DNA of 24,614 bases from Candidatus Iainarchaeum sp. (lineage in GTDB: Archaea; Iainarchaeota; Iainarchaeia; Iainarchaeales; DTGL01), in the NCBI GenBank assembly GCA_038736825.1, contig JAVYME010000017.1, positions 1 to 24,614 on the forward strand, in the 5' to 3' direction. Of this stretch, positions 1,091 to 20,446 are shown in pieces. Every line of letters begins with the position of its first letter. Position 1 is the stretch's first letter. Under the pieces are notes generated by a model. That model was not told the DNA's origin, did no database searches, and saw nothing but the letters and a program-made list of their open reading frames with translations. The position numbers were made by a program, and so were the translations under genes.

Positions 1091-1140
1091 AAAAAAAACC
1101 AAAAAACGCTTTTTTATTATCTTTCAATTTTATTATTTTT

Positions 1141-1899
1141 ATGCCATTCAAAAAACCCTTTGAAAGAAAACCTTCAAGTGAAAGGCTTTCCCCGAAAAAA
1201 AGGCAAATTCAAAGGCTTGCAAGCGCACTATCCTTGACAGCAAAATCAAAAACTGCAATAAAATTTTTTTGCAAAAACGGGCTTGGAGGCAAGCTTCAAA
1301 GGGAAAAAATTTATGCAGACATTGTCTTAGGGCTTTCAAGACTGCCTAAAGGCAGAAAAGTCAGCGAAATGGATTTTTTTAACGTGCTCTTTGAAAGAAA
1401 AATTGAAATTCCAGTAATGTTAGAGGTTTTCAACAAGAGGGCAGCAATGCGCGCATTTGCAGTGCCTGAAACCCAGAGAATGCAAGCATTAACCCTTTTA
1501 GAATTAAAAGCCAGAATAGCGGATTTTGCACTAAAACTGCCCTTTTCTGAAACAATCAAACCAAAAGAGCTTGTTCCAATAATGGATTTTGCAATTGAAG
1601 GCATCAAGGCTTCAAGGGAAACAAAAAAAGGCACTCCTGCCTTCAAACTAAACATGCAGCACTATAATGAAATGCTTGCAATGCTTGAAATGGAAAAAAA
1701 AGCACTTGAAGCCCTTGAAAGAAAAGGAGTCAAATACAGGGTAGGGGAAATAAATGCTGAATCTCTTGGAATGCTCAGAGCTTTAGGTGAAAGAGGGCTT
1801 TCAGACATAATTAAAGCAAACAGCCTTTTAGGAGTGCACTCCGCGCTACTGGATTTTTTTCACTGGGAAGCCTTAAAGTATTTCAAGCATTTTGACTAA
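1141..1899 (+). CDS. hypothetical protein with a basic N-terminus (ORFan)
   Basis: 252-aa ATG ORF with T-tract and TATA-like TTTTATTA about 29 nt upstream. No motif I recognise. The N-terminus MPFKKPFERKPSSERLSPKKRQ is strongly basic and the rest looks helical. Confidence 0.5.
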   Translation: MPFKKPFERKPSSERLSPKKRQIQRLASALSLTAKSKTAIKFFCKNGLGGKLQREKIYADIVLGLSRLPKGRKVSEMDFFNVLFERKIEIPVMLEVFNKRAAMRAFAVPETQRMQALTLLELKARIADFALKLPFSETIKPKELVPIMDFAIEGIKASRETKKGTPAFKLNMQHYNEMLAMLEMEKKALEALERKGVKYRVGEINAESLGMLRALGERGLSDIIKANSLLGVHSALLDFFHWEALKYFKHFD

Positions 1900-2489
1900 T
1901 TTTTTGCATTTAAAGCAATAAAAGCAACAAGCGCTCCAAGCAATGCTGTAACAAATTGCATTGCACTCATTGGCAGTAACAGTGCAGCAGGCAACATTGA
2001 AAAAGAGAATAGTGTGAAAGCAGAAACCCCAATTACAAGGGCTTTGGCTGTTGCCCCAATCAAGGCTTTAAAAGCAAAACTTTCATTGAAGTGCTTGAAA
2101 GAAAAAGCCAGCACTGCATTTCCAGCCCAAATGAATGGAACCAACAACAACAAATAAGGCGTGAGAGAGCCAAAAAGTGCTCCTGCGCTTAAAACCCCAA
2201 AAACCGGGAACAAGATTACTGAAAGCAAGTGCTTCAATTCAAGCCTTGTCGCAGCAATTATTATTGTTGCATTCACTAGTGTTCCAAGCAACAATTGTTG
2301 CGAGGAATGGCTTAAAATGAATGGCAGCATAAAGCAAAACAATGCATAAAGCAATGCTTCAACCCATTGCTTGTAGCGGGAAAGCCATTCAGAATTGAAA
2401 GCGTTTTTGAACCCTTGCATGTATATAAGAAAAGCGCCTGCCTTTAAATATTTAATGGCTGGCAAAAAAGGATTTGGGTTTTCCTTCAC
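1896..2489 (-). CDS. small polytopic membrane protein, function unknown (possibly transporter or S-component-like)
   Basis: 197 aa with about 5-6 hydrophobic helices. Its GTG start overlaps the hppA stop (GTGA), suggesting translational coupling. No diagnostic motif; an alternative ATG start lies near 2420. Confidence 0.5.
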   Translation of the reverse strand: MKENPNPFLPAIKYLKAGAFLIYMQGFKNAFNSEWLSRYKQWVEALLYALFCFMLPFILSHSSQQLLLGTLVNATIIIAATRLELKHLLSVILFPVFGVLSAGALFGSLTPYLLLLVPFIWAGNAVLAFSFKHFNESFAFKALIGATAKALVIGVSAFTLFSFSMLPAALLLPMSAMQFVTALLGALVAFIALNAKN

Positions 2490-4720
2490 GCAAATATTGG
2501 AAACACTGGGAACAGTGAAGCAAACAATATGGAAATCACAGACATTAGTTTCACCAAAATGTCAAGGCTTGGCCCGACAGTGTCCTTTAACGGGTCTCCC
2601 ACGGTGTCACCTACAACGCTTGAAACATGGGCTGGAGAGCCTTTTCCCCCATAATTGCCGTCTTCAATGTATTTTTTTGCGTTGTCCAGTGCGCCTCCCA
2701 TGTTTCCGCAATAAACTGCGAGTTGCATGCAAGAGAACAATGTTGCCAGCAAAAAGCCTGCGAGCGCAAACCTTCCAAAAATAAATCCAATGGTGAAAGG
2801 CAGTATTAGTGCAAAGGCAACAGGCAAAACCAGTTTTTTTAAGGCGCTCTTAGAGGTAATGGCAATGCATTTGTTGAAATCCGCTTCCTGTGTGCCTTTT
2901 AGTATGCCCGGCTTTTCCTTGAACTGCCTTCTAATTTCGTGAATCATTTTGTCCGCAGTGTCACTTACAGCCCTTATAAGCATTGCTGAAAACACGTATG
3001 GAATCATTGCACCCAAAAACATTGCAGCAATAATTGAACCTCCAAATCGCGGGTCAGCGCTTAAAACAGTCACTTGCGGTATTGTAACCTCTGTTGCAGA
3101 ACCAATAGCGCTCCAAAGGAATGCAACAATTAAGGCAAGAGCGGCAAATGCAGCAGAACCAATTGCAAAGCCTTTTCCAATTGCTGCAGTAGTGTTTCCT
3201 ATTGCATCCAGCCTGTCAGTTCTTCTCCTAACCTCTTTTGGCAAATTGGAGCCTTGCGCTATGCCGCCAGCATTATCCGCTATTGGGCCATAACTGTCAA
3301 TGCTTACATTCATTCCCACAAAGGAAAGCATTCCCATTGCCCCATACGCTATGCCCAAAAGCCCTGCAAGCGAATAACACAATACAATTGAAACAGCCAC
3401 AACAATGCCTGGCACTAGAGTGGAATGCATTCCAACCGCCATGCCATGCGTTATTCCTGTGGCAGGGCCAGTGGCAACACTTTTAGTGAGTTCTTTCACT
3501 GGCTTGAAATCTGAAGAAGTATAGTATTCTGAAATGAAACCAATTATTACGCCGGCAATCACTCCAATCACGATTGTCCAAAAAAGATTGAAATTGGATG
3601 GAGACAATATTAGGGTTATAATGCCGGCAAATACTATTGTCAGGAAAGCGCTAAGCCTGGCACCGTTTGTGAGCGCGCTTTGCAAGCCTTCCTCTTTGCT
3701 TTTTTTAGCCACAACAAAAATTATTCCCAATAGGCTTGCAATGATTCCGCCTGAAACAATCAGTAAAGGCATTAAAATGGTTGCCCAAAAAGCGCTCAAA
3801 CTGATTTCAGAGCCCAAGCCGATTTTTTGCAAAATGTAGAGAATGCTTTCATTGCTTCTTCCCACATACACGTACAAAATTATTACAAGCACTGAAATTA
3901 TTGCGCCAACAAATGATTCCAAGAGGTCAGCGCCAAGACCGCCTACATCGCCCACATTGTCTCCAACATTGTCTGCAATTGTTGCAGGATTCCTTGGATC
4001 GTCCTCTGGCAAGTGCTCTTCGGCTTTTCCCACAATGTCTGCGCCCATGTCTGCGGCTTTAGTGTAAATGCCTCCTCCAACCCTGTCAAACAAGGCAACA
4101 AGCGATGCCCCCATGGAATAAGCGCTCACAATCAATGCTGCCTTGATGAAAGTAAGGTTTCTTCCAAGAAAATCGCTCACTATTGGCACAGCCTTGTTTT
4201 CAATGTGCAAAATGGATGGATCGAATTCGTGAGCAAAAAGGAAAATTACAAGGGTAAGGCCTGCCACTGCAAGCCCTGCAGCAGCCATTCCATTGATTGA
4301 ACCGCCCACTAGCGCTATATTGAGGGCTTTTTTTGAATCCTTTCTTGCAGCGTTTGCCACGCGGGCGTTTGACATGGTGGCGCCATGCATTCCAATAAAG
4401 CCAGCGCTCATTGCAACTGTTCCGCCAATCAGGAATGCAATTGCAACCTCCCAGTAAAACAAGCCCCAGAGAATGAGTGCAATAACAACCAGTACAACTG
4501 CGAAAACTTTTACCTCTTCAACCATGAAAGTCCAAGCGCCCTCGCGAATGTATTTTTGCAATTGCCTCATTCTTTCTGTGCCAGCATCCTGTTTTGCAAC
4601 ATAACGGTTGAATTGCAAAACAGAAAAAACAGCGATAACAGAAACAATAGCGGATACAAAAATCAATTCGAACAATGGAATCACCCCGAAAAATTTCAAA
4701 AAAACGGAACAACTGAACAA
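2486..4720 (-). CDS. hppA: membrane-bound ion-translocating pyrophosphatase (M-PPase), K+-dependent type
   Basis: 744 aa, multi-TM. Diagnostic motifs GGGIYTKAADMGADIVGK, DNVGDNVGD and GDTVGDPLKDT are present. GNTTAAIGKG carries Ala rather than Lys, the signature of the K+-dependent subfamily. The start is TTG at 4720, with no in-frame ATG before TM1, so the exact N-terminus is uncertain. Confidence 0.95.
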   Translation of the reverse strand: MFSCSVFLKFFGVIPLFELIFVSAIVSVIAVFSVLQFNRYVAKQDAGTERMRQLQKYIREGAWTFMVEEVKVFAVVLVVIALILWGLFYWEVAIAFLIGGTVAMSAGFIGMHGATMSNARVANAARKDSKKALNIALVGGSINGMAAAGLAVAGLTLVIFLFAHEFDPSILHIENKAVPIVSDFLGRNLTFIKAALIVSAYSMGASLVALFDRVGGGIYTKAADMGADIVGKAEEHLPEDDPRNPATIADNVGDNVGDVGGLGADLLESFVGAIISVLVIILYVYVGRSNESILYILQKIGLGSEISLSAFWATILMPLLIVSGGIIASLLGIIFVVAKKSKEEGLQSALTNGARLSAFLTIVFAGIITLILSPSNFNLFWTIVIGVIAGVIIGFISEYYTSSDFKPVKELTKSVATGPATGITHGMAVGMHSTLVPGIVVAVSIVLCYSLAGLLGIAYGAMGMLSFVGMNVSIDSYGPIADNAGGIAQGSNLPKEVRRRTDRLDAIGNTTAAIGKGFAIGSAAFAALALIVAFLWSAIGSATEVTIPQVTVLSADPRFGGSIIAAMFLGAMIPYVFSAMLIRAVSDTADKMIHEIRRQFKEKPGILKGTQEADFNKCIAITSKSALKKLVLPVAFALILPFTIGFIFGRFALAGFLLATLFSCMQLAVYCGNMGGALDNAKKYIEDGNYGGKGSPAHVSSVVGDTVGDPLKDTVGPSLDILVKLMSVISILFASLFPVFPIFA

Positions 4721-5359: not shown

Positions 5360-6481
5360 ATGAGCACTGAAAGCCTTCTCTTTGAATCCAACCTTGAAGG
5401 CTTAAGAAAAGCAATGCAAAAAAGCCCGGAAGAGATTATTGCCATAGTAAAAGAATCCGGCTTAAAAGGAAGGGGCGGCGCAGGCTTTCCAACAGGATTA
5501 AAATGGGAAACTGCAGCAAAAGCAGTCGGCGAAAAGTTTGTTTTGTGCAATGCAGACGAAGGCGAGCCCGGAACATTCAAAGACAAGCTTGTTTTGACAA
5601 AAACCCCACTCAACGTAATAGAAGGCATCATAATTGCTTGCAAAGCAGTCGGCGCAAAAAAAGCATTCATTTATTTGCGAGGAGAATACGCGCACTTGGC
5701 GCCCTCTTTAAAAAAAGCAATGAAAAAAGCCTGCTCTTTCCTTGAAAAAGAATGCATAGACTTGGAAATAGTTTTAGGGCAAGGCGCATACATTTGCGGA
5801 GACGAAACCGCAATCCTTAACTCAATCGAGGGAAAAAGGCCTGAACCAAGAAAAAAACCACCCTATCCAGCAGAAAAAGGCCTTAACGGGCAGCCCACTG
5901 TAGTCAACAATGTTGAAACCCTTGCAATGGTTCCATTGATTTTTTTGAACCGTTTTGATTCAAGAAAAAGGCTTTGCTCTCTTTCGGGCGACCTTGAAAA
6001 CCCCGGTGTTTTTGAAATAATTGAAGGAAAGCAGGCAGGCAAACTGGTTGAACTGGCTAAACCAATAGGCAAACCGAAAGCGCTTTGTTTTGGAGCCTCG
6101 GGTGGAATAATTCCCTTTGATCCCTGCATGGAATTAACAGAAGCAAACGTTAAAGAAAAAGGCGCTTTTGCTGGCACTTGGTCCATTATTGTTGTCAACG
6201 AAAAGCACTCCATAGTTGAATTGTGCAAGAGCACTCAACACTTTTTTGTCCACGAATCTTGCGGTTATTGTGCGCCTTGCAGGGAAGGCAATCTCAGAAT
6301 GCTGGAATTGCTTGAAAAAATTTGCAAGGGAAAGGGTACAAAAAAAGACTTGCAAAAATTGCGCGAGCTTTCAGGGCTTTTAAGCGCTTCCTGTTTTTGC
6401 GCTCTTGGAAAATCAGCCCCATTGCATGTTTCCACAGCCTTGAAACATTTTTCAAAGGAGTTTGAGGAAAAATGCATGTGA
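5360..6481 (+). CDS. NuoF/HydB-like NAD(P)H- and FMN-binding [4Fe-4S] subunit, core only
   Basis: Motifs present: GRGGAGFPTGLKW, CNADEGEPGTFKD, YICGDETAILNSIEG, NNVETL, and the N3-type cluster ESCGYCAPCREG...CFCALG. SD GGAGGG at 5349-5354. The stop overlaps the hydA start by 10 nt. Confidence 0.9.
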   Translation: MSTESLLFESNLEGLRKAMQKSPEEIIAIVKESGLKGRGGAGFPTGLKWETAAKAVGEKFVLCNADEGEPGTFKDKLVLTKTPLNVIEGIIIACKAVGAKKAFIYLRGEYAHLAPSLKKAMKKACSFLEKECIDLEIVLGQGAYICGDETAILNSIEGKRPEPRKKPPYPAEKGLNGQPTVVNNVETLAMVPLIFLNRFDSRKRLCSLSGDLENPGVFEIIEGKQAGKLVELAKPIGKPKALCFGASGGIIPFDPCMELTEANVKEKGAFAGTWSIIVVNEKHSIVELCKSTQHFFVHESCGYCAPCREGNLRMLELLEKICKGKGTKKDLQKLRELSGLLSASCFCALGKSAPLHVSTALKHFSKEFEEKCM

Positions 6482-8163
6482 CAATTGACGGCAAATACAT
6501 TGAATGCATGCAAGGCGAAACAATATTGCAGGCAGCCAAAAAAAACAATATTGACATTCCCACTCTTTGCTATCACTCAATGCTGGAACCAGAGGGAAGG
6601 TGCAGGGTTTGCCTTGTTGAAGCCAACGGCAAAACCACAACCGCTTGTGACACAATAGTGCAAGACGGAATGAACATTATAACAGACTCTGAAAAGCTTC
6701 GCTTAATGAGAAAGGATGCAGTGGACTTGATTGCGTCCAGTGTTTCGCCTGAAGTCCTGCAAAGCGAAAACGAGCTCACAAAAGCAATGCAAAAAGTCGG
6801 GTTAAAAAAACCATCCTTCAAAAACTACAAAAAACTGGAAAAAGACAATTCAAGCAATGCAGTTTGGCGGGACAACAACAAATGCATTTCCTGCGGGCGC
6901 TGCGTGCAATCCTGCTCCAAAGTGCAATCAGTCAACGCAATAGCCTTTTCCGGGAGAAGCATTGAAATGCAGGTTGAAGGGGTTTTCTGCGAACAACTCT
7001 ATTGCACTAAATGCGTTTCATGCGGGCAATGCTCGCTTGTTTGCCCCACAAACGCCATAAGCGAAGCAAACTCGCTTTCAATAGTGGAAAAGCACCTTAA
7101 AGAAAAAGGAAAAATAAAAATAGCGCAAATAGCCCCTTCAGTGCGGGTTTCCTTGGGCGAATGCCTTGGCATTCCACCCGGAAAAAACCTTGAACGACAG
7201 ATTGCAGCCGGCTTAAAAAAAGCAGGCTTTGATTTTGTTTTTGACACAAATTTTGGCGCAGACCTCACAATAGTGGAAGAATCATCAGAATTCATTGAAA
7301 GAATTAGAGAAGGAAAAAAACCGCTTTTCACGAGCTGTTGCCCTGCATGGATAGACTATTGCTGCCAATTCCATCCAGAACTGATTCCAAGCCTTTCCAC
7401 TGCAAAGTCACCGCAATTAATGCTTGCAGCAATGACAAAAACCCATTTTGCAGAAAAAAAAGGCTTTTCGCCAAAAAAAATCTTCAATGTTTCAATAATG
7501 CCTTGCACTGCAAAGAAAAAAGAAGCCTCTTTAAAACAAATGGGGCGCAAAGGCTTGCGCGACATAGATGCGGTTTTAACCACGCGAGAGTTGGGCGAAC
7601 TATTCAAAAGAAAACACATTGACCTTGAAAAAATCCAGCCAGCCGACTTTGATGACCCTCTCGGGGAAAGCACTGGCGCAGGAGCAATCTTTGGAGCCAC
7701 AGGCGGCGTAATGGAGGCAGCCCTTCGAACAGCCTATTTCCTTTTGGAAGGCAAAGACCTTGAAAGAGACGAAATCCCTCAAGTGAGAGGCGAAAAAGGA
7801 ATAAAAGAATTTGAAATAATGGTGGGCGGAAAAAAGTTCAAGACAGCAGTGGCACACGGGCTCTCGAATGCTGAAAAACTCATTGAAAGGCTCAAAAAAG
7901 GCGAAGAATTCGATTTCATTGAAATAATGGCTTGCCCTGGAGGCTGCATTGGCGGCGGAGGCCAGCCCAAGCCAACAAACTGGAATCTTATCCAGGAAAG
8001 AACTAAAGCGATTTACTCCATAGACAGCAGTAAAAGCGTTAGAAAAAGCCATCACAACCAGTCAGTGAAAAAATTGTATGAAGAATTCCTTGGAAAACCG
8101 GGTTCAAAAAAGGCAAAACAATTGCTTCACAGAACCTATCCAAAAAAAGGCAAAACATTTTGA
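6472..8163 (+). CDS. hydA: [FeFe]-hydrogenase catalytic subunit, CpI-like architecture
   Basis: All three H-cluster motifs are present: TSCCPAW, MPCTAKKKE and EIMACPGGCIGGGGQP. Also present are FGADLTIVEE, AKSPQ and GATGGVMEAALR. The N-terminal plant-type [2Fe-2S] has Cys33/44/47/59. There are two ferredoxin-like [4Fe-4S] motifs, CISCGRCVQSC and CVSCGQCSLVCP. SD AAGGAG at 6455-6460. Confidence 0.93.
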   Translation: MHVTIDGKYIECMQGETILQAAKKNNIDIPTLCYHSMLEPEGRCRVCLVEANGKTTTACDTIVQDGMNIITDSEKLRLMRKDAVDLIASSVSPEVLQSENELTKAMQKVGLKKPSFKNYKKLEKDNSSNAVWRDNNKCISCGRCVQSCSKVQSVNAIAFSGRSIEMQVEGVFCEQLYCTKCVSCGQCSLVCPTNAISEANSLSIVEKHLKEKGKIKIAQIAPSVRVSLGECLGIPPGKNLERQIAAGLKKAGFDFVFDTNFGADLTIVEESSEFIERIREGKKPLFTSCCPAWIDYCCQFHPELIPSLSTAKSPQLMLAAMTKTHFAEKKGFSPKKIFNVSIMPCTAKKKEASLKQMGRKGLRDIDAVLTTRELGELFKRKHIDLEKIQPADFDDPLGESTGAGAIFGATGGVMEAALRTAYFLLEGKDLERDEIPQVRGEKGIKEFEIMVGGKKFKTAVAHGLSNAEKLIERLKKGEEFDFIEIMACPGGCIGGGGQPKPTNWNLIQERTKAIYSIDSSKSVRKSHHNQSVKKLYEEFLGKPGSKKAKQLLHRTYPKKGKTF

Positions 8164-8187
8164 AAAAATTCCTTTTCTGGGATTAAA

Positions 8188-8195
8188 TTTAAATA
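8188..8195 (+). promoter_or_regulatory. TATA-box candidate (TTTAAATA) for the small Cys4 gene
   Basis: 31 nt upstream of ATG 8219. Confidence 0.35.
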
Positions 8196-8218
8196 CTAGT
8201 TTATTGTATATTTTAAAC

Positions 8219-8500
8219 ATGCCTTTACAAAGCGTAGTGACTGCCGTCAAAAAGAACCCTTTGCCTCAAAAACAAATAGTTTACCAAAAACCAGAGCCAA
8301 GGTTCATAGACGCAGACGAAGTTGTAACACAAAAACAAGAGGAATCACCCAACCAGCCAAGAATCGGGGACTGGAAGTCATGCCAGTACTTTAAAGAAGT
8401 CAATGGAAAAAAGTACTGCGTTCACTTCATGTCCTTCTGTGCCATGGAAAAATGCAATGGAACACTGCCATTGCTTGGCCAGAAAATGAGAAGGCGCTGA
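8219..8500 (+). CDS. small Cys4 protein, unknown function
   Basis: 93 aa from ATG 8219, with TATA-like TTTAAATA at 8188-8195. The longer track ORF from 8078 would overlap hydA. The C-terminal half carries C-x11-C-x6-C-x4-C (CQYFKEVNGKKYCVHFMSFCAMEKC). Confidence 0.45.
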   Translation: MPLQSVVTAVKKNPLPQKQIVYQKPEPRFIDADEVVTQKQEESPNQPRIGDWKSCQYFKEVNGKKYCVHFMSFCAMEKCNGTLPLLGQKMRRR

Positions 8501-8507
8501 TTCTGAA

Positions 8508-8522
8508 CCCGCAATGCGCGGG
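8508..8522 (+). terminator. GC-rich hairpin (CCCGC-AATGC-GCGGG) after the small Cys4 gene, followed by T-rich sequence
   Basis: 5-bp GC stem 8 nt after the stop at 8500, in an otherwise AT-rich spacer between convergent genes. TATTTTT lies about 20 nt downstream. Confidence 0.3.
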
Positions 8523-8584
8523 AGAAAAGTGCAAAAAAAAGTATTTTTGAGTGGACACTGGCAAAAAAAGCAATTAAAAAAAAT

Positions 8585-9400
8585 TCAAAGCCTTTTCAGT
8601 TTTTCCCTTTCCTCTGCCTCTGCTCTTTTTTCAGCAATCTCTTTTTTTTCCAGTGCTCTCTGGTTTTTCCTTTGAGAAGAAAAAAACAGTGAAATTGCAA
8701 ACAAGATTATTCCAAAAAACAAAAAGCTTACGCCCCATAGGGCTGAAAGAGAAAAAAAGCCAGTGACAACGCTTTGAGCGAAAGGCAAAAGCGCATTCAA
8801 ATTGTTTTCAGAAAGAGTTTTTTGCAAAAAACCAAAAAAAATTTGCGGTGTCGCCAAGTAGAAAACCAAAACCAGAAAACCTGAAAGCGCAAAAGAAAAA
8901 CCAGCCCATTTCATTTTTGAGTTAACCCCGCTTGCAACAATCAATATGACAAGCAAGAACACCAAGGCTAGCAGCAAAGACATTGATTTTGCCACAAGCA
9001 TTGTTTGAATTGCAACTTTTGCTTTTCCAAAAAAAGAAAGCAATTGTTGCGGCAAAACAGAGGAAACAGAAAAGGAGGCTTTTTGGGAAAAAACCGCAGG
9101 CAAGCCAAGCTCTATCTCTTTTGCTTTCGGTTCACGCAAGTAATGGACAATTGCATCAACAAAGCCATCCCCAAAAGCCTTTATAGCGTTTGGTCCGACA
9201 AATTCAATCAATTCCTTGGCACTCAAGCCATTGTTTTCCGCTGAAAGCTCAAAAAAAACCTGATAGGCATTGAAATCAGTTGCTTTGGCTTTAAGGAAAT
9301 CCGCATTCAATGCAGTGGATTCAAATGCTTGTGCAACCAAGAAAAAGCCAAAAAACAGGGAAAAAAAAACCGACATGAAGAACAAAAAAATTACGCGCAT
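8585..9400 (-). CDS. membrane protein with N-terminal signal/anchor, multiple predicted C-terminal TM helices and a charged coiled tail
   Basis: 271-aa ATG ORF. MRVIFLFFMSVFFSLFFGFFLVAQA is signal-like. An extracytoplasmic segment of about 110 aa is followed by a hydrophobic block and the tail QRKNQRALEKKEIAEKRAEAEEREKLKRL. Confidence 0.55.
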   Translation of the reverse strand: MRVIFLFFMSVFFSLFFGFFLVAQAFESTALNADFLKAKATDFNAYQVFFELSAENNGLSAKELIEFVGPNAIKAFGDGFVDAIVHYLREPKAKEIELGLPAVFSQKASFSVSSVLPQQLLSFFGKAKVAIQTMLVAKSMSLLLALVFLLVILIVASGVNSKMKWAGFSFALSGFLVLVFYLATPQIFFGFLQKTLSENNLNALLPFAQSVVTGFFSLSALWGVSFLFFGIILFAISLFFSSQRKNQRALEKKEIAEKRAEAEEREKLKRL

Positions 9401-9485
9401 ATTAAACGATTAATAAAATGGCAAGGGGCTTTTTAATATTTTCTGTTGGTAGTTTGTTTTGTTACAGGAGAAAAGGGGTGAATTC

Positions 9486-10808
9486 ATGAAAAGGAAAAAA
9501 GTCATAATAATGGGTGCCGCTGGAAGGGACTTCCATAATTTCAATGTTTTTTTCCGCAACAAAAAAGAATTTGAAGTTGTTGCATTCACTGCAACCCAGA
9601 TTCCTGACATAGAAGGAAGGCTTTACCCGCCAAAGCTTGCCGGAAAACTTTACCCAAAAGGCATTCCAATAAAACCAGAGGAAAAACTTGAAGCGCTTAT
9701 AAGAGAAAAAAAGGCAGAAATTGTTGTTTTCTCTTACTCTGACATAAAATATGAAGCCTTAATGCAAAAATCTGCAATTGCAAACGGGGCTGGCGCTGAC
9801 TTCTGGCTATTGGGTTCTGAAAGCACAATGCTGGAATCCAAAAAGCCGGTTATAGCGGTGTGCGCTGTAAGAACAGGCTGCGGCAAAAGCCAGACAACAA
9901 GGAGAGTTTGCGAAATACTCAAAAAAATGGGCAAAAGAATTGCAGTAATAAGGCATCCAATGCCTTACGGCAACCTTGCAGAACAAGAAGTGCAAAGGTT
10001 TGAAAAAATAGAAGATCTTGCCAAGCACAAGTGCACAATAGAGGAAATGGAAGAATACGAGCCCCACATAGTGCGCGGCAACCTTGTGTTCGCAGGCGCC
10101 GACTATGAAAAAATTTTAAGAGCAGCAGAAAAAGAAGCGGATGTCATCTTATGGGACGGCGGAAACAACGATTACTCCTTCTACAAGGCAGATTTATACA
10201 TAACGGTTGCTGATCCGCATCGAGCAGGACACGAAAAAACCTATTACCCAAGCGGAGTAAACGTTGCCCTTGCCAACGCCTTTGTAATAAACAAAGAAGA
10301 CACAGCAGAACCAGAAAAAATAAGGGAAGTTGAAAAAAACCTTTCAGAAATGAACCCAAAAGCAAAAATAATCCACTGCAATTCCCCCATAAGCGTTGAA
10401 AAACCAGAACTAATAACCGGAAAAAGGGTTTTGGTTATAGAAGACGGCCCAACACTAACCCACGGCGAAATGAAATACGGTGCCGGCATAGTGGCAGCAA
10501 AAAAATTCAAAGCAAAAGAAATCGTTGACCCGAGGCCTTTCCTGGTTGGCAAACTAAAAGAAACCTTTGAGCACTATCCAGGCATAGGCACACTCCTTCC
10601 AGCAATGGGTTACGGGGAAAAACAAGTGAAAGACTTAGAAGCAACAATAAACTCTTGCAATTGCGATTCAGTGATAATTGCCACTCCAATAGACCTTTCA
10701 AGAGTCATCAAAATAAGAAAACCGTTTACAAGGGTAACATACGAGCTAGAGGAAAAAACACAACCAGGCTTAAAGGAATTAATAGAAAAAGCGCTAAAAA
10801 GCGCTTAA
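9486..10808 (+). CDS. COG2403-type P-loop protein (predicted GTPase / cyclic 2,3-diphosphoglycerate synthetase-like)
   Basis: ATG 9486 is preceded by GGGGTGA at 9475-9481. The N-terminus reads KVIIMGAAGRDFHNFN, and there is a P-loop-like AVRTGCGKSQTTR and DGGNND. Length and layout match my memory of this archaeal family. The track start at 9459 is an upstream TTG. Confidence 0.6.
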   Translation: MKRKKVIIMGAAGRDFHNFNVFFRNKKEFEVVAFTATQIPDIEGRLYPPKLAGKLYPKGIPIKPEEKLEALIREKKAEIVVFSYSDIKYEALMQKSAIANGAGADFWLLGSESTMLESKKPVIAVCAVRTGCGKSQTTRRVCEILKKMGKRIAVIRHPMPYGNLAEQEVQRFEKIEDLAKHKCTIEEMEEYEPHIVRGNLVFAGADYEKILRAAEKEADVILWDGGNNDYSFYKADLYITVADPHRAGHEKTYYPSGVNVALANAFVINKEDTAEPEKIREVEKNLSEMNPKAKIIHCNSPISVEKPELITGKRVLVIEDGPTLTHGEMKYGAGIVAAKKFKAKEIVDPRPFLVGKLKETFEHYPGIGTLLPAMGYGEKQVKDLEATINSCNCDSVIIATPIDLSRVIKIRKPFTRVTYELEEKTQPGLKELIEKALKSA

Positions 10809-10881
10809 AATAGTTCAGTTTTAAGCAAAACCAATCGAAAAAGCAAAACAATTAAAAAAAATTCAGGGAATGTTTTAATCA

Positions 10882-11364
10882 ATGCCTTCAAGAAAAAAAC
10901 CCGCAAACCATGGCAAACCATTAATGAAGCCACTCTTTCCAGAAACAGCACTGGGAAAAACCTTTGTTCCACAAAAACCAGTGATTGAAAACAGTCACCC
11001 AAAAAACAGAAAACCAAAAATGAAGCCATTATTTCCAGAAATTAATCCACAACAACACTTGTTTCTTTCAAGGTACACTCTTGAAAGCGGAAGAGCCAGG
11101 CTTCAAACAGAGTTCAGGTTTCCCAAGGCACAAAACCAAAAAGAGCTTGCAAGAATAATGGCAATGCGAGTGCTTTCCAGCAGGGCATTGCTGATTGAAA
11201 TGCATCACGCTCTTGGATTAGAGCGGGGAAAAGTGAACTCGCTTATTGAAGAAGCAGCCAGAATAAGAAAAATCGGGGAGAAAAAAGGCTTTACAACACC
11301 AATTGCAAACGCTTTCCTGCAACAAGTAAAAGAATTTGCCAGATTCATCAGCCAAAGCGAATAA
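10882..11364 (+). CDS. hypothetical basic protein with duplicated MKPLFPE motif (ORFan)
   Basis: 160-aa ATG ORF. The N-terminal third is Pro/Lys-rich with two copies of K-P-x-M-K-P-L-F-P-E, and the C-terminal part looks helical. No family recognised. Confidence 0.5.
   Translation: MPSRKKPANHGKPLMKPLFPETALGKTFVPQKPVIENSHPKNRKPKMKPLFPEINPQQHLFLSRYTLESGRARLQTEFRFPKAQNQKELARIMAMRVLSSRALLIEMHHALGLERGKVNSLIEEAARIRKIGEKKGFTTPIANAFLQQVKEFARFISQSE
10924..11040 (+). repeat. two copies of a 21-nt direct repeat (ATGAAGCCAYTMTTTCCAGAA), 96 nt apart, in frame
   Basis: Copies at 10924-10944 and 11020-11040 are identical at 19 of 21 positions. Both encode MKPLFPE. Confidence 0.8.
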
Positions 11365-11372
11365 AAAAAACA

Positions 11373-11395
11373 ATGCCAAACACTGCGTTTGGCAT
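11373..11395. terminator. shared hairpin between convergent transcripts (ATGCCAAAC-ACTGC-GTTTGGCAT)
   Basis: Perfect 9-bp stem with a 5-nt loop. On the minus strand it is flanked by T7 before and T8 after. On the plus strand it lies 8 nt after the stop of 10882..11364 and is followed by T-rich CTTTATTTCTTTTT. Confidence 0.45.
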
Positions 11396-11407
11396 CAAAA
11401 AAACGCT

Positions 11408-11461
11408 TTATTTCTTTTTAGTCTTCTTCTTGGTAGAGCTTCCACCGCAACAGCACGGCAT
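11408..11461 (-). CDS. candidate micro-ORF, 17 aa: MPCCCGGSSTKKKTKKK
   Basis: On the minus strand: GGAGGTG (11474-11468), a 6-nt spacer, ATG, 17 sense codons, TAA, then the T7-hairpin-T8 terminator. It lies in an otherwise unexplained 203-nt gap and is below the size cutoff of the supplied ORF track. Confidence 0.4.
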   Translation of the reverse strand: MPCCCGGSSTKKKTKKK

Positions 11462-11567
11462 GCAAAACACCTCCGAATAAATTAATGAGTTTGGTTTTAA
11501 AAAGCTATTTTAATGCAAAAACTAATACCAAACAAGAACAAAAAAAACCTCACGCTTTAATTTCACC

Positions 11568-12323
11568 ATGAATGCAAAAAAAAGGTTTAAAGAAATGCGC
11601 GAAAAAATCATTTCAGTCATAGTGCCAACCTTGAACGAAGAACAATTTATCGGCAAATGCCTTGAATCGCTTTCAAGGCAAACCATTCCAAGAAAAGAAT
11701 ACGAAATAATAGTAAGCGACAGCTCAAGCGAGGACAACACTGTAAAGATTGCAAAAAAGCTTGCAGACAAGGTTGTTGTCTGCAAAAGAGTGAGCGCAGG
11801 CTATGGCAGAAACTTTGGAGCAAAACACGCAAAAGGCAAATACCTTGTATTCATTGACGGCGACACAATTGCAAGCCCGACCTTTTTGGAAGGCGCAAAA
11901 GAAGCACTTGAAAACGCGATTGCAGCAACCGGTCCAATAAGCGCGCTCGAAAAAGACAGCCTTTTAATGCGCGCATATTACAAGATGTGGAGCATCCAGA
12001 ACAGGATAACAGTTCTAATCCGTTTCCCGCTTTTTCCAGGCTTCAATTTTGCAGTAAGAAAAGACATATTTGAAAAGGAAAAAGGCTTTCTCACAAAAAA
12101 CATCACGACAGAAGATTTAGAGCTTTCACTGCGATTGAAAAAAAAAGGACGGATTGCCTTCAGCGAAAAAATGCTTGTCCTGACTTCCACGAGAAGAATC
12201 CGCGAACTTGGGCTCACTAGTTGCATTAAAAGCGCAACCAATTTTCTCTTGTTCGGAAAATCGCATCCATGGGAAGAGCACAGAAAAGATTTTGCAAAAA
12301 AAAGGAAAAAAACTAAAAGGTGA
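11568..12323 (+). CDS. family 2 glycosyltransferase (GT-A fold)
   Basis: ISVIVPTLNEEQFIGKCLESLSRQT, EIIVSDSSSEDNT and the DxD-like FIDGDT are typical of GT2. 251 aa with no TM segment. Confidence 0.8.
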   Translation: MNAKKRFKEMREKIISVIVPTLNEEQFIGKCLESLSRQTIPRKEYEIIVSDSSSEDNTVKIAKKLADKVVVCKRVSAGYGRNFGAKHAKGKYLVFIDGDTIASPTFLEGAKEALENAIAATGPISALEKDSLLMRAYYKMWSIQNRITVLIRFPLFPGFNFAVRKDIFEKEKGFLTKNITTEDLELSLRLKKKGRIAFSEKMLVLTSTRRIRELGLTSCIKSATNFLLFGKSHPWEEHRKDFAKKRKKTKR

Positions 12324-15550: not shown

Positions 15551-16168
15551 ATGGGCAAAAGAAGATCACGACAAAAGCACAAGCCACCGTATCTTTTCAA
15601 AGTTCTTCCAAAAACCATTAAAACCATTGGACGCAAAGAAAAAAGCAAAATCGAAAAGCCAGCAATAAATATTTTGGCTTTGAGAAAACCTTGGCCTCAA
15701 AAATACAAGCCATTGCAGGCAACAATTCAAACTGCAATCGGTGAAATCAATGTCTTGCACATGCTAGCAATGGAAGCGCGTGCCAATATTGTTGGTCCTT
15801 TAAGTTTGCGTTTTAGGGCTGTAATGGGGCAGTCGTTCCCTAGGCCGGAGTTAATAGTTGACCCGAAAAAAATATCCAGAAAGAAAGCAATCCACAAAGC
15901 CAGAGAGCTTTCAAGAATTATTGCACAACTGCAAAATCTTGCAAGGGTTGCTGGCGTTAGTGCAGCAAAGGCTGAAAAGGGCTTGAAGGAAATTGACTCT
16001 AAGGATTGCCCGAAAGAGGTAATTGGCACAGCCAATCTTGCTTTGGGCAGAATGGCTGAAATTTCCATTGAGGCAAGGGAAATATTGTGGCAATTGGGAG
16101 AGGCGCAAAGAGTGCTTGAATTGTATGCGAGCACTGGAGCGACAAGGCTGCCGCTCAAGCCTGATTAA
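15551..16168 (+). CDS. hypothetical basic protein (ORFan)
   Basis: 205 aa from ATG 15551; the track start at 15467 is a TTG. The N-terminus is MGKRRSRQKHKPPYLFKVLPK and the remainder is helical. The 3' end overlaps the convergent thiI-like gene by 14 nt. Confidence 0.45.
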   Translation: MGKRRSRQKHKPPYLFKVLPKTIKTIGRKEKSKIEKPAINILALRKPWPQKYKPLQATIQTAIGEINVLHMLAMEARANIVGPLSLRFRAVMGQSFPRPELIVDPKKISRKKAIHKARELSRIIAQLQNLARVAGVSAAKAEKGLKEIDSKDCPKEVIGTANLALGRMAEISIEAREILWQLGEAQRVLELYASTGATRLPLKPD

Positions 16169-16790
16169 AAGGCAAAGCCCATTTCTTGCAAGCGCTTGCA
16201 AAAGCCTTTTCTGTTATTGCTTTCAAGTCAATCTTGCTTTCTTCTTCGAGCACTCTTTCAAGGCGTGCGCGAGTGCTTGGATGCTTTGGCCCCAAGACAT
16301 CGCACATTTCTGGTCCTTTTGAGAGCTCAAAAGTGCCAATTTTTTCAGCAATCCTTGTGGTTTCCAGTTTGTTGAAACACAAAAGCGGTCTTGCAATTGT
16401 TTTTCCGGAAGCCCTGCTAATGACAGCCATGTTTGCAAGCGTTTGGCTTGAAACCTGTCCAATGCTGTCACCAGTGCAAATAAAATCGCATTTTTCTTTT
16501 TCAGCCACTTTTTCCGCTATTTTGAAAAACAGTCTTCTCTGCAAAACAAAATAATAAGCGTTATCGCATTTTTCTGCAATCTCTTTTAATGCTTGCGATA
16601 AATCCAAGACAATGAATTTTTTGAATTTTAGTTTTTTTGCAATCTTGCGGGCTTTTTCAATTGATTCTGTGCCAGCAAACTCCTTGTTTGAAAAATGCAA
16701 TGCTATTACTTCTGCTTTTTTTGACGCAAGCCAGCCAGCTACAGGCGAGTCAATGCCTCCGCTTAAAAGCAGCAAAGCACGGCTTTTCAT
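16155..16790 (-). CDS. ThiI-like PP-loop ATP pyrophosphatase domain, stand-alone (no THUMP or N-terminal ferredoxin-like domain)
   Basis: [14 protein letters not shown] is the PP-loop. [40 protein letters not shown] and [15 protein letters not shown] align with the C-terminal half of ThiI as I remember it. The ATG overlaps the dnaJ stop (ATGA). Confidence 0.72.
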
Positions 16791-17962
16791 GAACCAAACC
16801 CTTTTCTTATTTTTTCCTGAAACCTTTCAAAAAAGCCTTTTCTTTTCTTGCTGGTTTCCTCTTCCTTCAACAATTGCTCGAACAATTCCCTTTCTTTTTT
16901 GGAAAGCGATTTCGGGGTTTCCAGGATAACTTTAACGAATTCGTCGCCTTTGCCGATTGAATTGAGTTTTTGAATTCCTTTTTCCTTTAACCTGAAAATT
17001 GTCCCGCTCTGGGTTCCAGGCGGAATTTTCAGTTTTGCCATTCCATACAATGTTGGCACTTCAACTTCCGCTCCAAGTGCTGCCTCTGCAAAGCTTATAG
17101 GGATTTCGCAATAAACATCAAAATTGTCGCGCTTGAAAATATCGTGTGGTTCAACAAATATCACCACATAGATGTCGCCTGCCGGCCCGCCTTTTATTCC
17201 AGCATTGCCTTGTCCTGCCAAGCGCAAATAGTTTCCAGAGTCAATGCCTGCTGGCACTTTCACTTTCACTTTCTTTTTTTCCTTTTTAATGCCTTCGCCC
17301 TTGCATTCACTGCAAGGGTTTTTTGAAAACTTTCCAGTGCCCCCGCACTTGTGACAGGTTGTGATTGTTTGGAAAAAGCCAAAGGGTGTCCTGCTTGACC
17401 TTGAAACTTGGCCTGCACCGCCACAATTGGGGCAAGTTGAAATGTCTTTTTCGCTTTTATAGCCTTTGCCGTTGCATTCATTGCAGGCAATTGTTCTTTC
17501 AATTAAAATTTCTTTTTCTGTTCCAAATGCTGCTTCTTCAAAGGAAATTGAAAGAGTGAACTTTATGTCAGAGCCTTTTTTGGGGCTTTGCTTTCTTGTT
17601 GTTCTGGTTCCAAATTCTTCTCCGAAAAAGTCTCCGAAACCGCTTCTGGAAAAGGCATTGAAAATGTCTGAAAAGTCAAAATCAAAGGATGAAAAGCCTT
17701 CAAAGCCTTCTGTTCCCCTAAAGCCCTGGAATCCCTTAAAGGCATCATAGCCGTGACCGAACTGGTCATAGGCTTGCCTTTTTTGCTTGTCGGAAAGCAC
17801 TGAATATGCTTCCTGGATTTCTTTGAATTTTTCTTCTGCGTCTTTTTCGCTGCTGATGTCTGGATGGTATTTTTTTGCGAGTTCTTTGTAGGCTCGCTTT
17901 ATTTCGTCTTCGGAAGCGTTTCTTCCAACGCCTAAAATGTCATAATAGTCGCGCTTTTGCAT
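16787..17962 (-). CDS. dnaJ: type I Hsp40 co-chaperone DnaJ
   Basis: J-domain DYYDILGV...KKYHPD, a G/F-rich linker, and four CxxCxGxG zinc-finger repeats ([32 protein letters not shown]). Confidence 0.95.
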
Positions 17963-17981
17963 GCAATTCCTTCACTCGGGC

Positions 17982-19859
17982 TTATTTTTTGTCTTCGTCT
18001 TCCATTTTAAAGTCTGCGTCCACGACTTTGCCTTTTTTTTCCTTCTTTTTTGCAGAACCGCTTTCTTCTGGTTCATTGCTTTCACTAGTGTCAGGTTCAG
18101 TGTTTTGTTGTCCTGCGCGCTTGTAAAGCTCTGAGGAAGCCGCCTGCATTTCTTTTTCCAGTTCTTGTTTTGCGCTTTTCACTGCCTTTGCATTATTGTC
18201 CTTCAAAGCGTTTTTTAATGCCTCTGTTTTTTGCACGATTTTTTGCCTTGCAGTTTCTGGAATTTTGTCTCCCAATTCTGAAAGCATTTTTTCAGAGGCA
18301 TAAACCATTGCCTCTGCCTCGTTCATTTCTTGCGCTTCTTCCATGCGTTTTCTGTCCTCTTCAGCGTGCTCTTCAGCCTCTCTTTTCATGCGCTCTATTT
18401 CCTCCTTGTCAAGTTTTTGCGATGCAACGATTTTAATGCTTTGCTCTTTTCCTGTGCCCAAGTCTTTTGCTGTGACATGGACTATGCCGTTTGCGTCAAT
18501 GTCAAAGGTGACTTCAATTTGTGGAACACCCCTTGGTGCTGGTGGAATCCCAATCAACTGGAACCTGCCAAGTTCCTTGTTGTCTTTTGCCATTGGGCGT
18601 TCGCCTTGCAATACGTGAATGTCCACTGCTGTCTGGTTGTCTGCGGCAGTGGAAAAAACCTGGGATTTTTTTGTTGGAATTGTTGTGTTGCGTTCAATGA
18701 GTTTTGTCATTACTCCGCCCAAGGTTTCAATTCCAAGGCTTAAAGGTGTAACATCAAGCAATAATACATCCTTTACTTCTCCGCTTAAGACTCCTGCCTG
18801 GATTGCCGCCCCCATTGCAACGCACTCCATTGGGTCAACGCCTCTTTCAGGCTTTACGCCTGTAATGTGTTCCACAAATTTTTGGATTGCAGGCATTCTT
18901 GTTGGTCCGCCAACCAGTATCACTTTGTCTATGTCTCCGGGTGTCATTTTGGCGTCAGCAATTGCTTGCATTACTGGTTTTTCGCATTTTTTAATTATTG
19001 GGTCGATTAATTGTTCGAGTTTTGCTCTTGTCAGTTTGTAGTTGAAGTGCTTGGGTTCGCCTTTGACAGAGGCCAAATATGGCAGGTTGATGTCTGTTTC
19101 AAGCACTGTGCTTAACTCTATTTTTGCCCTTTCAGCCGCCTCTCTCAAGCGCTCCATTGCGGTTTTGTCCTTTGAAATGTCCGCTCCCTCTTTTTTCTTG
19201 AATTCTGCCACCAAAAATTCAACTATAACGCGGTCCATGTCTGTGCCGCCCAGTTGAGTGTCTCCAGAAGTGCTTTTGACTTCAAAAACGCCTTGCCCGA
19301 ACTCCATTATTGTCACATCAAGTGTTCCGCCGCCAAAATCGAAAACCATTGTTTTGTGCTCTTTTTCCTTTTTGTCCAATCCATAGGCGAGAGCAGCAGC
19401 TGTCGGTTCATTAATAATCCTTATTACCTCCAAGCCAGCGATTTCTCCAGCGTCCTTTGTTGCCTGCCTTTGGTTGTCGTCAAAATAGGCTGGCACAGTG
19501 ATAACTGCCTTTTCCACTTTATCGCCTAAAAACTCTTCAGCATCCCTTTTTATTTTTTGCAAAATGAAGGCGGAAATCTGTTGTGGAGTGTATTCTTTTC
19601 CAAACACTTTATACTTGAAGTCAGTGCCCATTTTCCTTTTTGCAGCAGTAATCGTGCCTTCTGGATTGTTTACTGCCTGCCTTTTAGCCGGCTCTCCAAC
19701 CAACAACTGTCCGTCTTTTGTGAATGCAACAACGCTTGGAAAGCTCTTTCCATACAAGGAAGTGCCTTCAGCGCTTGGAATAATTTTAGGCTTTCCTGCC
19801 TCTAAAACTGCAGCAGCACTATTGCTGGTTCCCAAATCAATTCCAATCACTTTACTCAT
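17982..19859 (-). CDS. dnaK: Hsp70 chaperone DnaK
   Basis: [62 protein letters not shown] and a full substrate-binding domain. The start overlaps the grpE stop (ATGA). Confidence 0.97.
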
Positions 19860-20446
19860 TTGGCATCACCTTCTTTCTCTTCCAAAACCTCTTCTTTTTT
19901 TTCTTGCGCTTCAACAACATTCAATTTTACTTTTGCAGGCCTTAAAACAAGGCCATTGAACATATAGCCTTTCTGGCATTCTTCCAAAATCTCGTTTTCT
20001 TTTTTTTCTTTCACGCTTTCCCTTAAAACGCATTCCATGCAGTTTGGGTCAAATTCTTTGCATTGAATTTCTGAAACCCCGTTTTTTTGAAATGCAGACC
20101 ATAATTGTTCGAAAAGCGCTTTAAGGCCCTTGTCTTCAGGGCATTTGTTTAAGGCTTCGCGCACTGAGTCAAGCACTGGAAGGAAACAGGAAAGCACTTC
20201 TGCTTTAGCTCGCTGTTCTTTCATGGCTGTTTCTTTGTCTCTGCGTTTCATGGCGTTTTCAAAGTCTGCTTGAACCCTTTGAAGCAAACCCTTTAATTCC
20301 TCAAACTCTCTGCCTCTTTTTTCGATTTCGCCTTGCAAGTCCACTATTTGCTTTTTCAATGGTTCAAGCAATTCCAAGCCAGCCATTGCAGCCCTTTCAG
20401 CGCTTTTCGGGCTTTTTTTTCCTTTAATTCGTTCCCTTGCAGCCAT
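19856..20446 (-). CDS. grpE: nucleotide exchange factor GrpE
   Basis: N-terminal coiled coil, [21 protein letters not shown] and [17 protein letters not shown] match GrpE. It is the first gene of the grpE-dnaK-dnaJ operon. Confidence 0.85.

Follow-up and report, generated by a model that had tools for sequence, protein, structure and literature searches.

Can a reading frame of only 17 codons, lying between two larger genes of an uncultivated archaeon, be a gene in its own right, and what could so small a product do? The question is raised by contig JAVYME010000017.1 of a Candidatus Iainarchaeum sp. genome (GenBank assembly GCA_038736825.1), of which positions 1 to 24,614 were analysed and are here called the window. 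On its minus strand a short open reading frame (the micro-ORF) encodes a peptide with three consecutive Cys near the start and a Lys-rich tail. A previous examination made from the letters alone, referred to here as the sequence-only reading, had proposed that this frame is an unannotated micro-gene, expressed on its own and coding for a polybasic peptide rich in Cys. Comparison with other genomes bears this out, since the frame is conserved in the nearest available relative (L001) and seven more versions of it were found, and we consider the micro-ORF very probably a genuine translated gene of a previously undescribed microprotein family of the DPANN archaea. The full explanation, that of a translated monocistronic micro-gene of a new family whose peptide would work through thiolates and charge, is one to which we give slightly less than even weight. 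Proteins of less than 30 aa escape standard gene callers, and the DPANN are uncultivated organisms with tiny genomes in which each retained gene is informative.

The micro-ORF and its counterpart in the nearest relative

When the minus strand is read directly, a Shine-Dalgarno sequence (SD, GGAGGTG), a 6-nt spacer, an ATG, the frame for MPCCCGGSSTKKKTKKK, a TAA, a T7 tract, a hairpin and a T8 tract follow one another at the very bases named in the sequence-only reading, and the AT-rich, TATA-like sequence that had been located around 11490-11515 corresponds to a box within these limits (Table 1). The codons after the ATG are CCG TGC TGT TGC GGT GGA AGC TCT ACC AAG AAG AAG ACT AAA AAG AAA, and the predicted intact product would be PCCCGGSSTKKKTKKK, with or without its Met. 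The hairpin folds at -13.4 kcal/mol (RNAfold, z = -2.7), in agreement with the structure first proposed, and a terminator consensus scan lists it, together with its T-run, as a terminator-like site on the minus strand only. On the plus strand A7 comes after the stem, so that the hairpin is not a T-run terminator for the convergent gene on that strand. An archaeal gene with SD-led translation is expected to have an SD that is complementary to the 16S 3' end and lies 5-9 nt ahead of the start codon, to close with a stop in frame and to be followed by five or more T, and the micro-ORF shows all of these; oligo-T is the termination site of the archaeal RNA polymerase.

The SD had been described as strong and ideally spaced. 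It is indeed the strongest among the genes of the window, and the full GGAGGTG-N6-ATG occurs there once, at the micro-ORF; however, with at most one mismatch 0.64 chance occurrences of this motif are expected in the window, and the SD and ATG alone are therefore not significant. We hold the micro-ORF to be real because it is conserved, and not from its signals alone.

The evidence for this conservation comes from the closest genome match, L001, a Ca. Iainarchaeum metagenome-assembled genome (MAG) with a family-2 glycosyltransferase (GT2) 86% identical to that of the window; the synteny comparison of the window micro-gene covers this one relative. With this match and an archaeal gene content, the window is assigned to a DPANN archaeon of the Iainarchaeota (Diapherotrites). 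L001 has the whole unit at the same site, between GT2 and a convergent gene of 150 aa, where it reads GGAGGTG, 7 nt, ATG, MPCCCGDAKKKKPTKKTTKKKKK, TGA, a hairpin and T8-A-T9. In the DNA alignment the blocks AAAATAGCTTTTTAAA, ATTCGGAGGTGTT (the SD region) and ATGCCNTGCTGYTGCGG, the hairpin stem and the T8 are identical in both genomes. Across the first six codons (MPCCCG) there are three differences, all of them synonymous changes at the third base (CCG/CCA, TGT/TGC, GGT/GGA), and the Lys tails differ by insertions and deletions of whole codons. The expectation of a frame conserved with mainly synonymous change was thus upheld, L001 keeping the SD, the ATG and the frame, with synonymous changes only in the head. 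The convergent neighbour, by comparison, is merely 22% identical, which argues that the region around the micro-gene is not simply frozen. The stem TGCCAAAC/GTTTGGCA is unchanged in L001 and the loop differs (GCAGT in the window, TTG in L001), and because the stem shows no covariation the comparison does not prove the hairpin structure.

The AAAATAGCTTTTTAAA of the AT-rich box lies 34-50 nt before the ATG of the micro-ORF in the window and L001 alike, whereas the distance from the box to the start of the divergent GT2 changes from about 85-95 nt in the window to 40-55 nt in L001. Because its spacing is constant to the micro-ORF and not to GT2, we assign the box to the micro-gene, of which we infer it to be a candidate promoter. 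With a promoter box of its own, a strong SD and an oligo-T/hairpin/oligo-T terminator, the micro-gene is predicted to yield an mRNA of about 90-120 nt. The intergenic gap, first given as 203 nt, proved to be wider: the mechanical ORF start of GT2 is 11568, the called product has 242 aa and the alignment with the L001 orthologue begins at MREKI/MAEKI, which together place the probable GT2 start further downstream (Table 1) and bring the gap to about 230 nt. The plus-strand antisense of the Lys codons (window 11408-11431) is T-rich, CGCTTTATTTCTTTTTAGTCTTCTTCTT. The convergent 160-aa gene may use it as an oligo-T terminator, and the 3' ends of the two convergent transcripts would then probably share about 50-60 nt.

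A wider family and its operon context

Beyond the window and L001, seven other distinct versions occur in DPANN contigs, making nine members in all. They are 14-26 aa long and consist of Met (usually Met-Pro), two to five contiguous Cys, usually a Gly or Ser, and a tail of about 40-60% Lys that has no fixed sequence or length and always ends in K3-K5. An SD (GGAGG or AGGTGA) is found 6-7 nt upstream in all nine. The codon usage is mixed, with all four Pro codons in use and ratios of 19:10 for TGC:TGT and 45:24 for AAG:AAA, which indicates that selection acts on the peptide, and as the host GC of the family loci spans 31% to 58%, the Lys tail is not an artefact of AT-rich DNA.

A metagenome collection was scanned once with a degenerate pattern (MPCCCG, then two Lys pairs) that set no condition on SD, reading frame or immediate stop. 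It matched 12 stretches, two of which are family members (L066 and L072) and have all three of these features; the other 10 are chance matches, rejected as lying inside long ORFs or as being without Lys tail or SD. The contigs of homologues of the rubrerythrin-like protein of L066 were scanned for ATG-initiated ORFs of 10-40 aa with two or more Cys among residues 1 to 9 and at least 40% K/R in the tail, which brought out the members of L078, L083, L084/L085, L088 and L089. When an SD was made a condition and three start codons were allowed, both strands of about 830 kb yielded 10 loci of the family and a single unrelated match.

Three genomic contexts can be distinguished. The gene stands alone, with a candidate promoter and terminator, in the window and L001; it is the third gene of an operon in five lineages; and in L072, a separate low-GC lineage whose cysteinyl-tRNA synthetase (CysRS) is 32-38% identical to the others, it comes 37 nt after a gene for an AsnC-type regulator and is convergent with cysS. 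The ORF is directly followed by a hairpin with a T-run at three loci, those of the window, L001 and L083.

The operon consists of a ferritin-like gene (product about 190 aa), a rubrerythrin-like gene (250 aa in L066) and the Cys/Lys ORF, in this order. In five of nine distinct lineages the ORF begins 10-25 nt past the rubrerythrin-like stop, with GGAGG 6-7 nt before its ATG, and in the other four (L079/80, L081/82, L086/87, L090/91) no such ORF is present at that site. That chance alone should place an ORF within one and the same 30 nt behind this gene in five lineages is thus of negligible probability.

True rubrerythrins carry a C-terminal, rubredoxin-like Fe(Cys)4 domain, and their genes commonly lie beside rubredoxin genes. 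The rubrerythrin-like partner in this operon has the ExxH diiron motifs and no rubredoxin domain. Among its 34 homologues (P0102-P0135, relatives of L066 406-1158), 31 are free of Cys and three have a single one; all 34 share WLLEG at the C-terminus, and about one third begin with an extension of 15-40 residues rich in K/R, which recalls the Lys-rich tail by which Dps binds DNA. A fusion of the Cys/Lys peptide with the rubrerythrin-like protein (Rosetta-stone test) was found in none of the 34. At its N-terminus the ferritin-like protein bears the motif YEEIDLDAIESNKDEAPDYRP, which hardly varies, and at its C-terminus a conserved CxxGxC; in one paralogue (L079 9423-10004) both Cys of the CxxGxC are replaced, giving FSTFGIT. 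In Aenigmatarchaeota-like loci cysS lies next to the ferritin-like operon and divergent from it, or one gene further away, a proximity that may be plain synteny or may hint at a link with cysteine.

The ORF is called in none of the gene tables of the nine family loci. A 48-aa concatenation of three peptides, searched against 5.8 billion predicted proteins, returned 11 candidates and no match at E<=10, and the 23-aa and 20-aa family forms likewise had no match at E<=10 in Pfam, NCBIfam and the PDB sequences. A pattern scan of viral contigs gave 0 matches. In the published literature we found no relevant account of an MPCCCG peptide or of a DPANN microprotein that is rubrerythrin-linked or small and Cys-/Lys-rich. 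Very few microproteins are conserved across lineages of the DPANN, and this family would be among them.

Possible roles of the peptide

The explanation that we prefer would make the Cys head the working part, its thiolates binding a metal (Fe, Zn or Cu) or donating electrons, and would leave to the oligo-Lys tail a role of charge only, that of docking the head on a surface of many negative charges, which might be offered by an acidic protein partner, by nucleic acid or by acidic lipids. Where it is encoded third in the operon, in Aenigmatarchaeota-like genomes, its most likely role would be in iron/peroxide redox handling, as a trans-acting set of Cys ligands or as a thiol reductant; in the Iainarchaeota lineage of the window the gene stands alone. 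Because the partner proteins are without the rubredoxin Fe(Cys)4 domain, the simplest reading of the peptide would be that it provides the thiolate or redox element which they lack. The metal or Fe-S binding suggested by the sequence-only reading gains indirect support from the recurrent position of the ORF behind the ferritin-like/rubrerythrin-like pair in other lineages; the findings speak neither for nor against its two other suggestions, a membrane-associating peptide and a substrate for modification. That a thiolate head and polycationic tail act in iron/peroxide redox handling is, nonetheless, a tentative proposal drawn from context and composition, which we find more doubtful than assured.

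Several observations weigh against it. The available sequence of the window and L001 contains neither a ferritin-like nor a rubrerythrin-like gene, and the functional link to the iron/peroxide operon is carried over to the window lineage from other phyla. The four operon lineages without the ORF imply that the partnership is not obligatory, and the presence of the ORF correlates neither with the CxxGxC motif nor with a K-rich N-tail of the partner. A contiguous run of Cys, variable in number from two to five, does not fit the classical ligand geometry of Fe(Cys)4. The distribution of the family is patchy, GT2 orthologues at 63-69% identity having no such gene within 10 kb on either side. Lastly, the MPCCCG head and Lys pairs of L066 and L072 were ascertained by the search pattern and are not independent.

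We would place the family among the tiny metal/redox proteins based on Cys, a broad and known kind, although it is homologous to none of them. Rubredoxin and desulforedoxin are small electron carriers that bind one Fe in a tetrahedral Fe(Cys)4 thiolate site, and their genes lie next to rubrerythrin and superoxide reductase genes; the four Cys ligands stand in CxxC(G) knuckles, in desulforedoxin as CxxC plus CC with two adjacent Cys. The likeness lies in the very small Cys product, in its gene beside a rubrerythrin-type diiron gene and in the partner's lack of the rubredoxin domain that true rubrerythrins have. However, the family has no sequence relationship with them and no CxxC knuckles, it is half their size or less and has an oligo-Lys tail, and the window copy is without a rubrerythrin-type neighbour. 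Contiguous Cys serve as thiolate ligands in Cox17-type and metallothionein-like clusters, and the MPCCGCGSKKK of L083 recalls the KPCCxC of the Cox17 Cu(I) motif (CCxC), which we take as a lead only: Cox17 is a folded mitochondrial CHCH protein of about 65 aa without homology to the family, other members of which have CCCC or CCCCC with no intervening residue. The CPxCG zinc-finger micro-proteins of Haloferax are also archaeal, shorter than 70 aa and Cys-based in function, but they have at least two CPxCG knuckles forming a zinc ribbon, whereas the family has one contiguous Cys run and no Pfam or NCBIfam match. An eL41-like ribosomal protein would be lineage-universal, with mixed Arg and Lys; the tail here is Lys-only, and the ORF is absent from four of the nine operon sites and from the loci of the GT2 orthologues at 63-69% identity (±10 kb), although a genome without it at these sites may still carry it elsewhere.

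Could the frame be a chance ORF in the terminator region of the convergent 160-aa gene, or the site of a non-coding small RNA? Read in antisense, the Lys codons (CTTTTTAGTCTTCTTCTT, TTTATTTCTTTTT) could plausibly terminate the convergent gene as an oligo-T tract, and an SD with an ATG is by itself statistically ordinary. But L001 keeps frame, ATG, SD and Cys head with synonymous change, and the same architecture recurs in three unrelated contexts at GC 31-58%, with 10 family loci against one false positive and with operon contexts in which there is no convergent gene. As to an RNA, Rfam gave nothing at gathering level in the whole window, a relaxed search of the region returned only noise (the best match, SraB, with 17.9 bits against a gathering score of 130), and the transcript of the micro-gene is not unusually structured. 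This alternative is therefore hardly credible. A regulatory leader or sensor ORF would leave the peptide irrelevant, its Cys run and slippery Lys run reporting the supply of Cys- and Lys-tRNA and so setting termination, read-through or mRNA stability. The length of 14-26 codons, the run of one codon type and the hairpin with T-run after the stop recall the bacterial leaders trpL, hisL and pheL; the window has three Cys codons in a row and the family as a whole two to five; and cysS adjoins the ORF in L072 and lies 1-2 kb off in L083, L084/85 and L088. In the window, moreover, the GCGTTT after the stop could pair with the AAACGC inside the terminator stem, a weak 6-bp alternative. This pairing is absent from L001, however, and an attenuator was rejected because a terminator/antiterminator alternative is not conserved. 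The sequence-only reading had come to the same view from the lack of a gene downstream on that strand, and in the window, L001 and L072 it is indeed a convergent gene that follows; elsewhere the downstream gene varies (Ldh, inositol monophosphatase, nucleotidyltransferase) and the upstream gene is constant. Nor would the conserved terminal Lys tail have a role in a Cys sensor. To our knowledge leader-peptide attenuation is not established in archaea, and we judge a leader of this kind improbable.

The peptide could instead be a substrate, either the precursor of a Cys-modified product (a ribosomally synthesized and post-translationally modified peptide, RiPP, a metallophore or a cofactor) or an S-lipidated, polybasic membrane anchor. 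A short Cys-rich gene beside diiron proteins accords with this; iron-dependent oxidases such as MbnB modify Cys in short peptides, and Cys with a polybasic stretch is the classical membrane-targeting pair of eukaryotes. Yet a Pfam annotation of the 27 window ORFs revealed no radical-SAM, YcaO, lanthipeptide, DUF692 or transporter gene beside the micro-ORF, and in the other contexts only the ferritin-like neighbours are conserved, which are four-helix-bundle proteins and not DUF692-type enzymes. A leader/core layout is missing, since Cys that begin at residue 3 leave no room for a leader, although the Lys tail could in principle act as a RiPP follower. A role as substrate thus appears to us as improbable as one in a leader. 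The traits of a type I toxin were also sought in the family, which has no hydrophobic stretch or transmembrane helix and a tail of 40-60% Lys. A reading that overlaps with the preferred one, and differs in its target and in needing no metal, is that of a polycationic thiol bound to nucleic acid, in which the Lys tail would lie on DNA, RNA or the ribosome and the Cys head would act as a sacrificial reductant or form protamine-like disulfide cross-links. The tail, pure charge without conserved sequence, would suit this, as would the K/R-rich, Dps-like N-tails of many partner proteins. The thiol protection of DNA is set by net charge through counter-ion condensation (PMC3635210), and synthetic short polycysteine peptides are radioprotectors (PMC7977147); the peptide shares with such cationic aminothiols and polycysteine protectors, and with the Dps tail, the union of thiol and strong positive charge, but the protectors are small molecules or synthetic peptides and not gene products. 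The patchy distribution speaks against a core component of chromatin or ribosome, and the ORF is present independently of the K-rich tails of the partner. We regard a nucleic-acid-bound thiol as rather unlikely.

Returning to the thiolate and charge explanation, its boldest forms would be a polycationic oligothiol made on the ribosome, or a rubrerythrin 'split' into three gene products with an Fe(Cys)n centre supplied in trans, both of which we put forward as an unlikely, if suggestive, prospect. The oligothiol would be the genetically encoded equivalent, in function, of low-molecular-weight thiols or aminothiol protectants in DPANN with stripped-down metabolism, its Lys tail concentrating the peptide on DNA, RNA or an acidic diiron peroxidase and its Cys head providing a reductant or an Fe(Cys)n centre. 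We know of no natural ribosomal peptide of this cationic polythiol type. Since its constrained features are reduced to a few Cys and a charged tail, the peptide can be synthesised at little cost and tested without difficulty. Should the link with the operon be true, the peptide would show how these anaerobes complete peroxide and iron handling without rubredoxin, and would add a minimal natural thiolate peptide to metal/redox biochemistry.

Features and neighbouring genes

The micro-gene and the convergent 160-aa gene (window 10809-11594) form a lineage-specific insertion: in the loci of GT2 orthologues at 63-69% identity (L074-L077), which have neither of the two, a CobW-like gene abuts or overlaps GT2 (around 9990-10001). 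The coordinates of the features discussed are given in Table 1.

Table 1. Positions of the micro-ORF, its expression signals, the related ORFs and the genes near them
Locus	Feature	Position	Strand	Remark
Window	CobW/HypB/UreG-type GTPase	9459-10808	plus	Pfam annotation
Window	160-aa lineage-specific protein	10882-11364	plus	convergent with micro-ORF
Window	TG, then T8 tract 3' of hairpin	11370-11363	minus	2-nt overlap with stop of convergent 160-aa gene
Window	Hairpin, ATGCCAAAC/GCAGT/GTTTGGCAT	11395-11373	minus	perfect 9-bp stem, 5-nt loop
Window	T7 tract, then G	11403-11397	minus	4 nt 3' of stop; first oligo-T termination signal
Window	AGCG		minus	directly 3' of micro-ORF TAA; read directly
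Window	Micro-ORF, 17 codons + TAA, product MPCCCGGSSTKKKTKKK	11461..11408	minus	read directly, conserved in L001
Window	Start codon ATG	11461-11459	minus	read directly
Window	Spacer TTTTGC		minus	between SD and start codon; read directly
Window	SD GGAGGTG	11474-11468	minus	6 nt before ATG; read directly
Window	AT-rich promoter-like box, ATTAAAATAGCTTTTTAAAA	11495..11514	minus	candidate archaeal TATA/BRE (B recognition element) of micro-gene
Window	GT2	start probably 11595	plus	divergent from micro-ORF
L001	150-aa counterpart of the 160-aa protein	1018-1470	plus	convergent
L066	Family member MPCCCGSKKKPKKKR			GGAGGT 7 nt upstream
L066	Ferritin-like gene	1236-1790	minus	
L072	Family member MPCCCGSKKKNPKKKK			AGGTGA 6 nt upstream, T-rich sequence after stop
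L072	cysS (CysRS)	178-876	plus	convergent with micro-ORF
L078	Family member MPCCCGSKKKPKKK			L066/L078 form MPCCCGSKKKPKKK(R); behind rubrerythrin-like gene
L078	Ferritin-like gene	682-1224		
L079	cysS	6340-7743	minus	
L081	cysS	7884-9299	minus	
L081	Ferritin-like gene	9407-9976		
L083	Family member MPCCGCGSKKKEKKKKK			behind rubrerythrin-like gene
L083	cysS	7790-9217	minus	
L083	Ferritin-like gene	9319-9900		
L084/L085	Family member MGDGCCCCSKKTVKKKKK			behind rubrerythrin-like gene
L084	cysS	7770-9164	minus	
L084	Ferritin-like gene	9380-9973		
L086	cysS	766-2160	minus	
L086	Ferritin-like gene	2921-3514		
L088	Family member MPGCCCCCEPAKKKTAAKKTVKKKKK			Aenigmatarchaeota MAG; behind rubrerythrin-like gene
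L088	cysS	3120-4523	minus	
L089	Family member MPCCGSKKKTKKKKK			behind rubrerythrin-like gene
L089	Ferritin-like gene	55-615		

The convergent 160-aa protein has no Pfam or NCBIfam match and only three other representatives among 1.8 billion proteins, and its single-sequence AlphaFold2 (AF2) model, with a pLDDT of 58, is not good enough to be used in a fold search. A conserved micro-gene is thus paired here with an orphan that evolves fast.

Elsewhere in the window, the plus strand carries genes (5360-8163) for a NuoF-like flavoprotein (Complex1_51K) and, after it, for the large subunit of an [FeFe]-hydrogenase, which has 563 aa and includes ferredoxin-like domains; [FeFe] hydrogenases are uncommon in archaea. 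On the minus strand lies a complete GrpE-DnaK-DnaJ operon (16787-20446), bacterial-type chaperones in a small archaeal genome, which is accompanied by ThiI (16155-16790) and an H+-pyrophosphatase (2486-4720).

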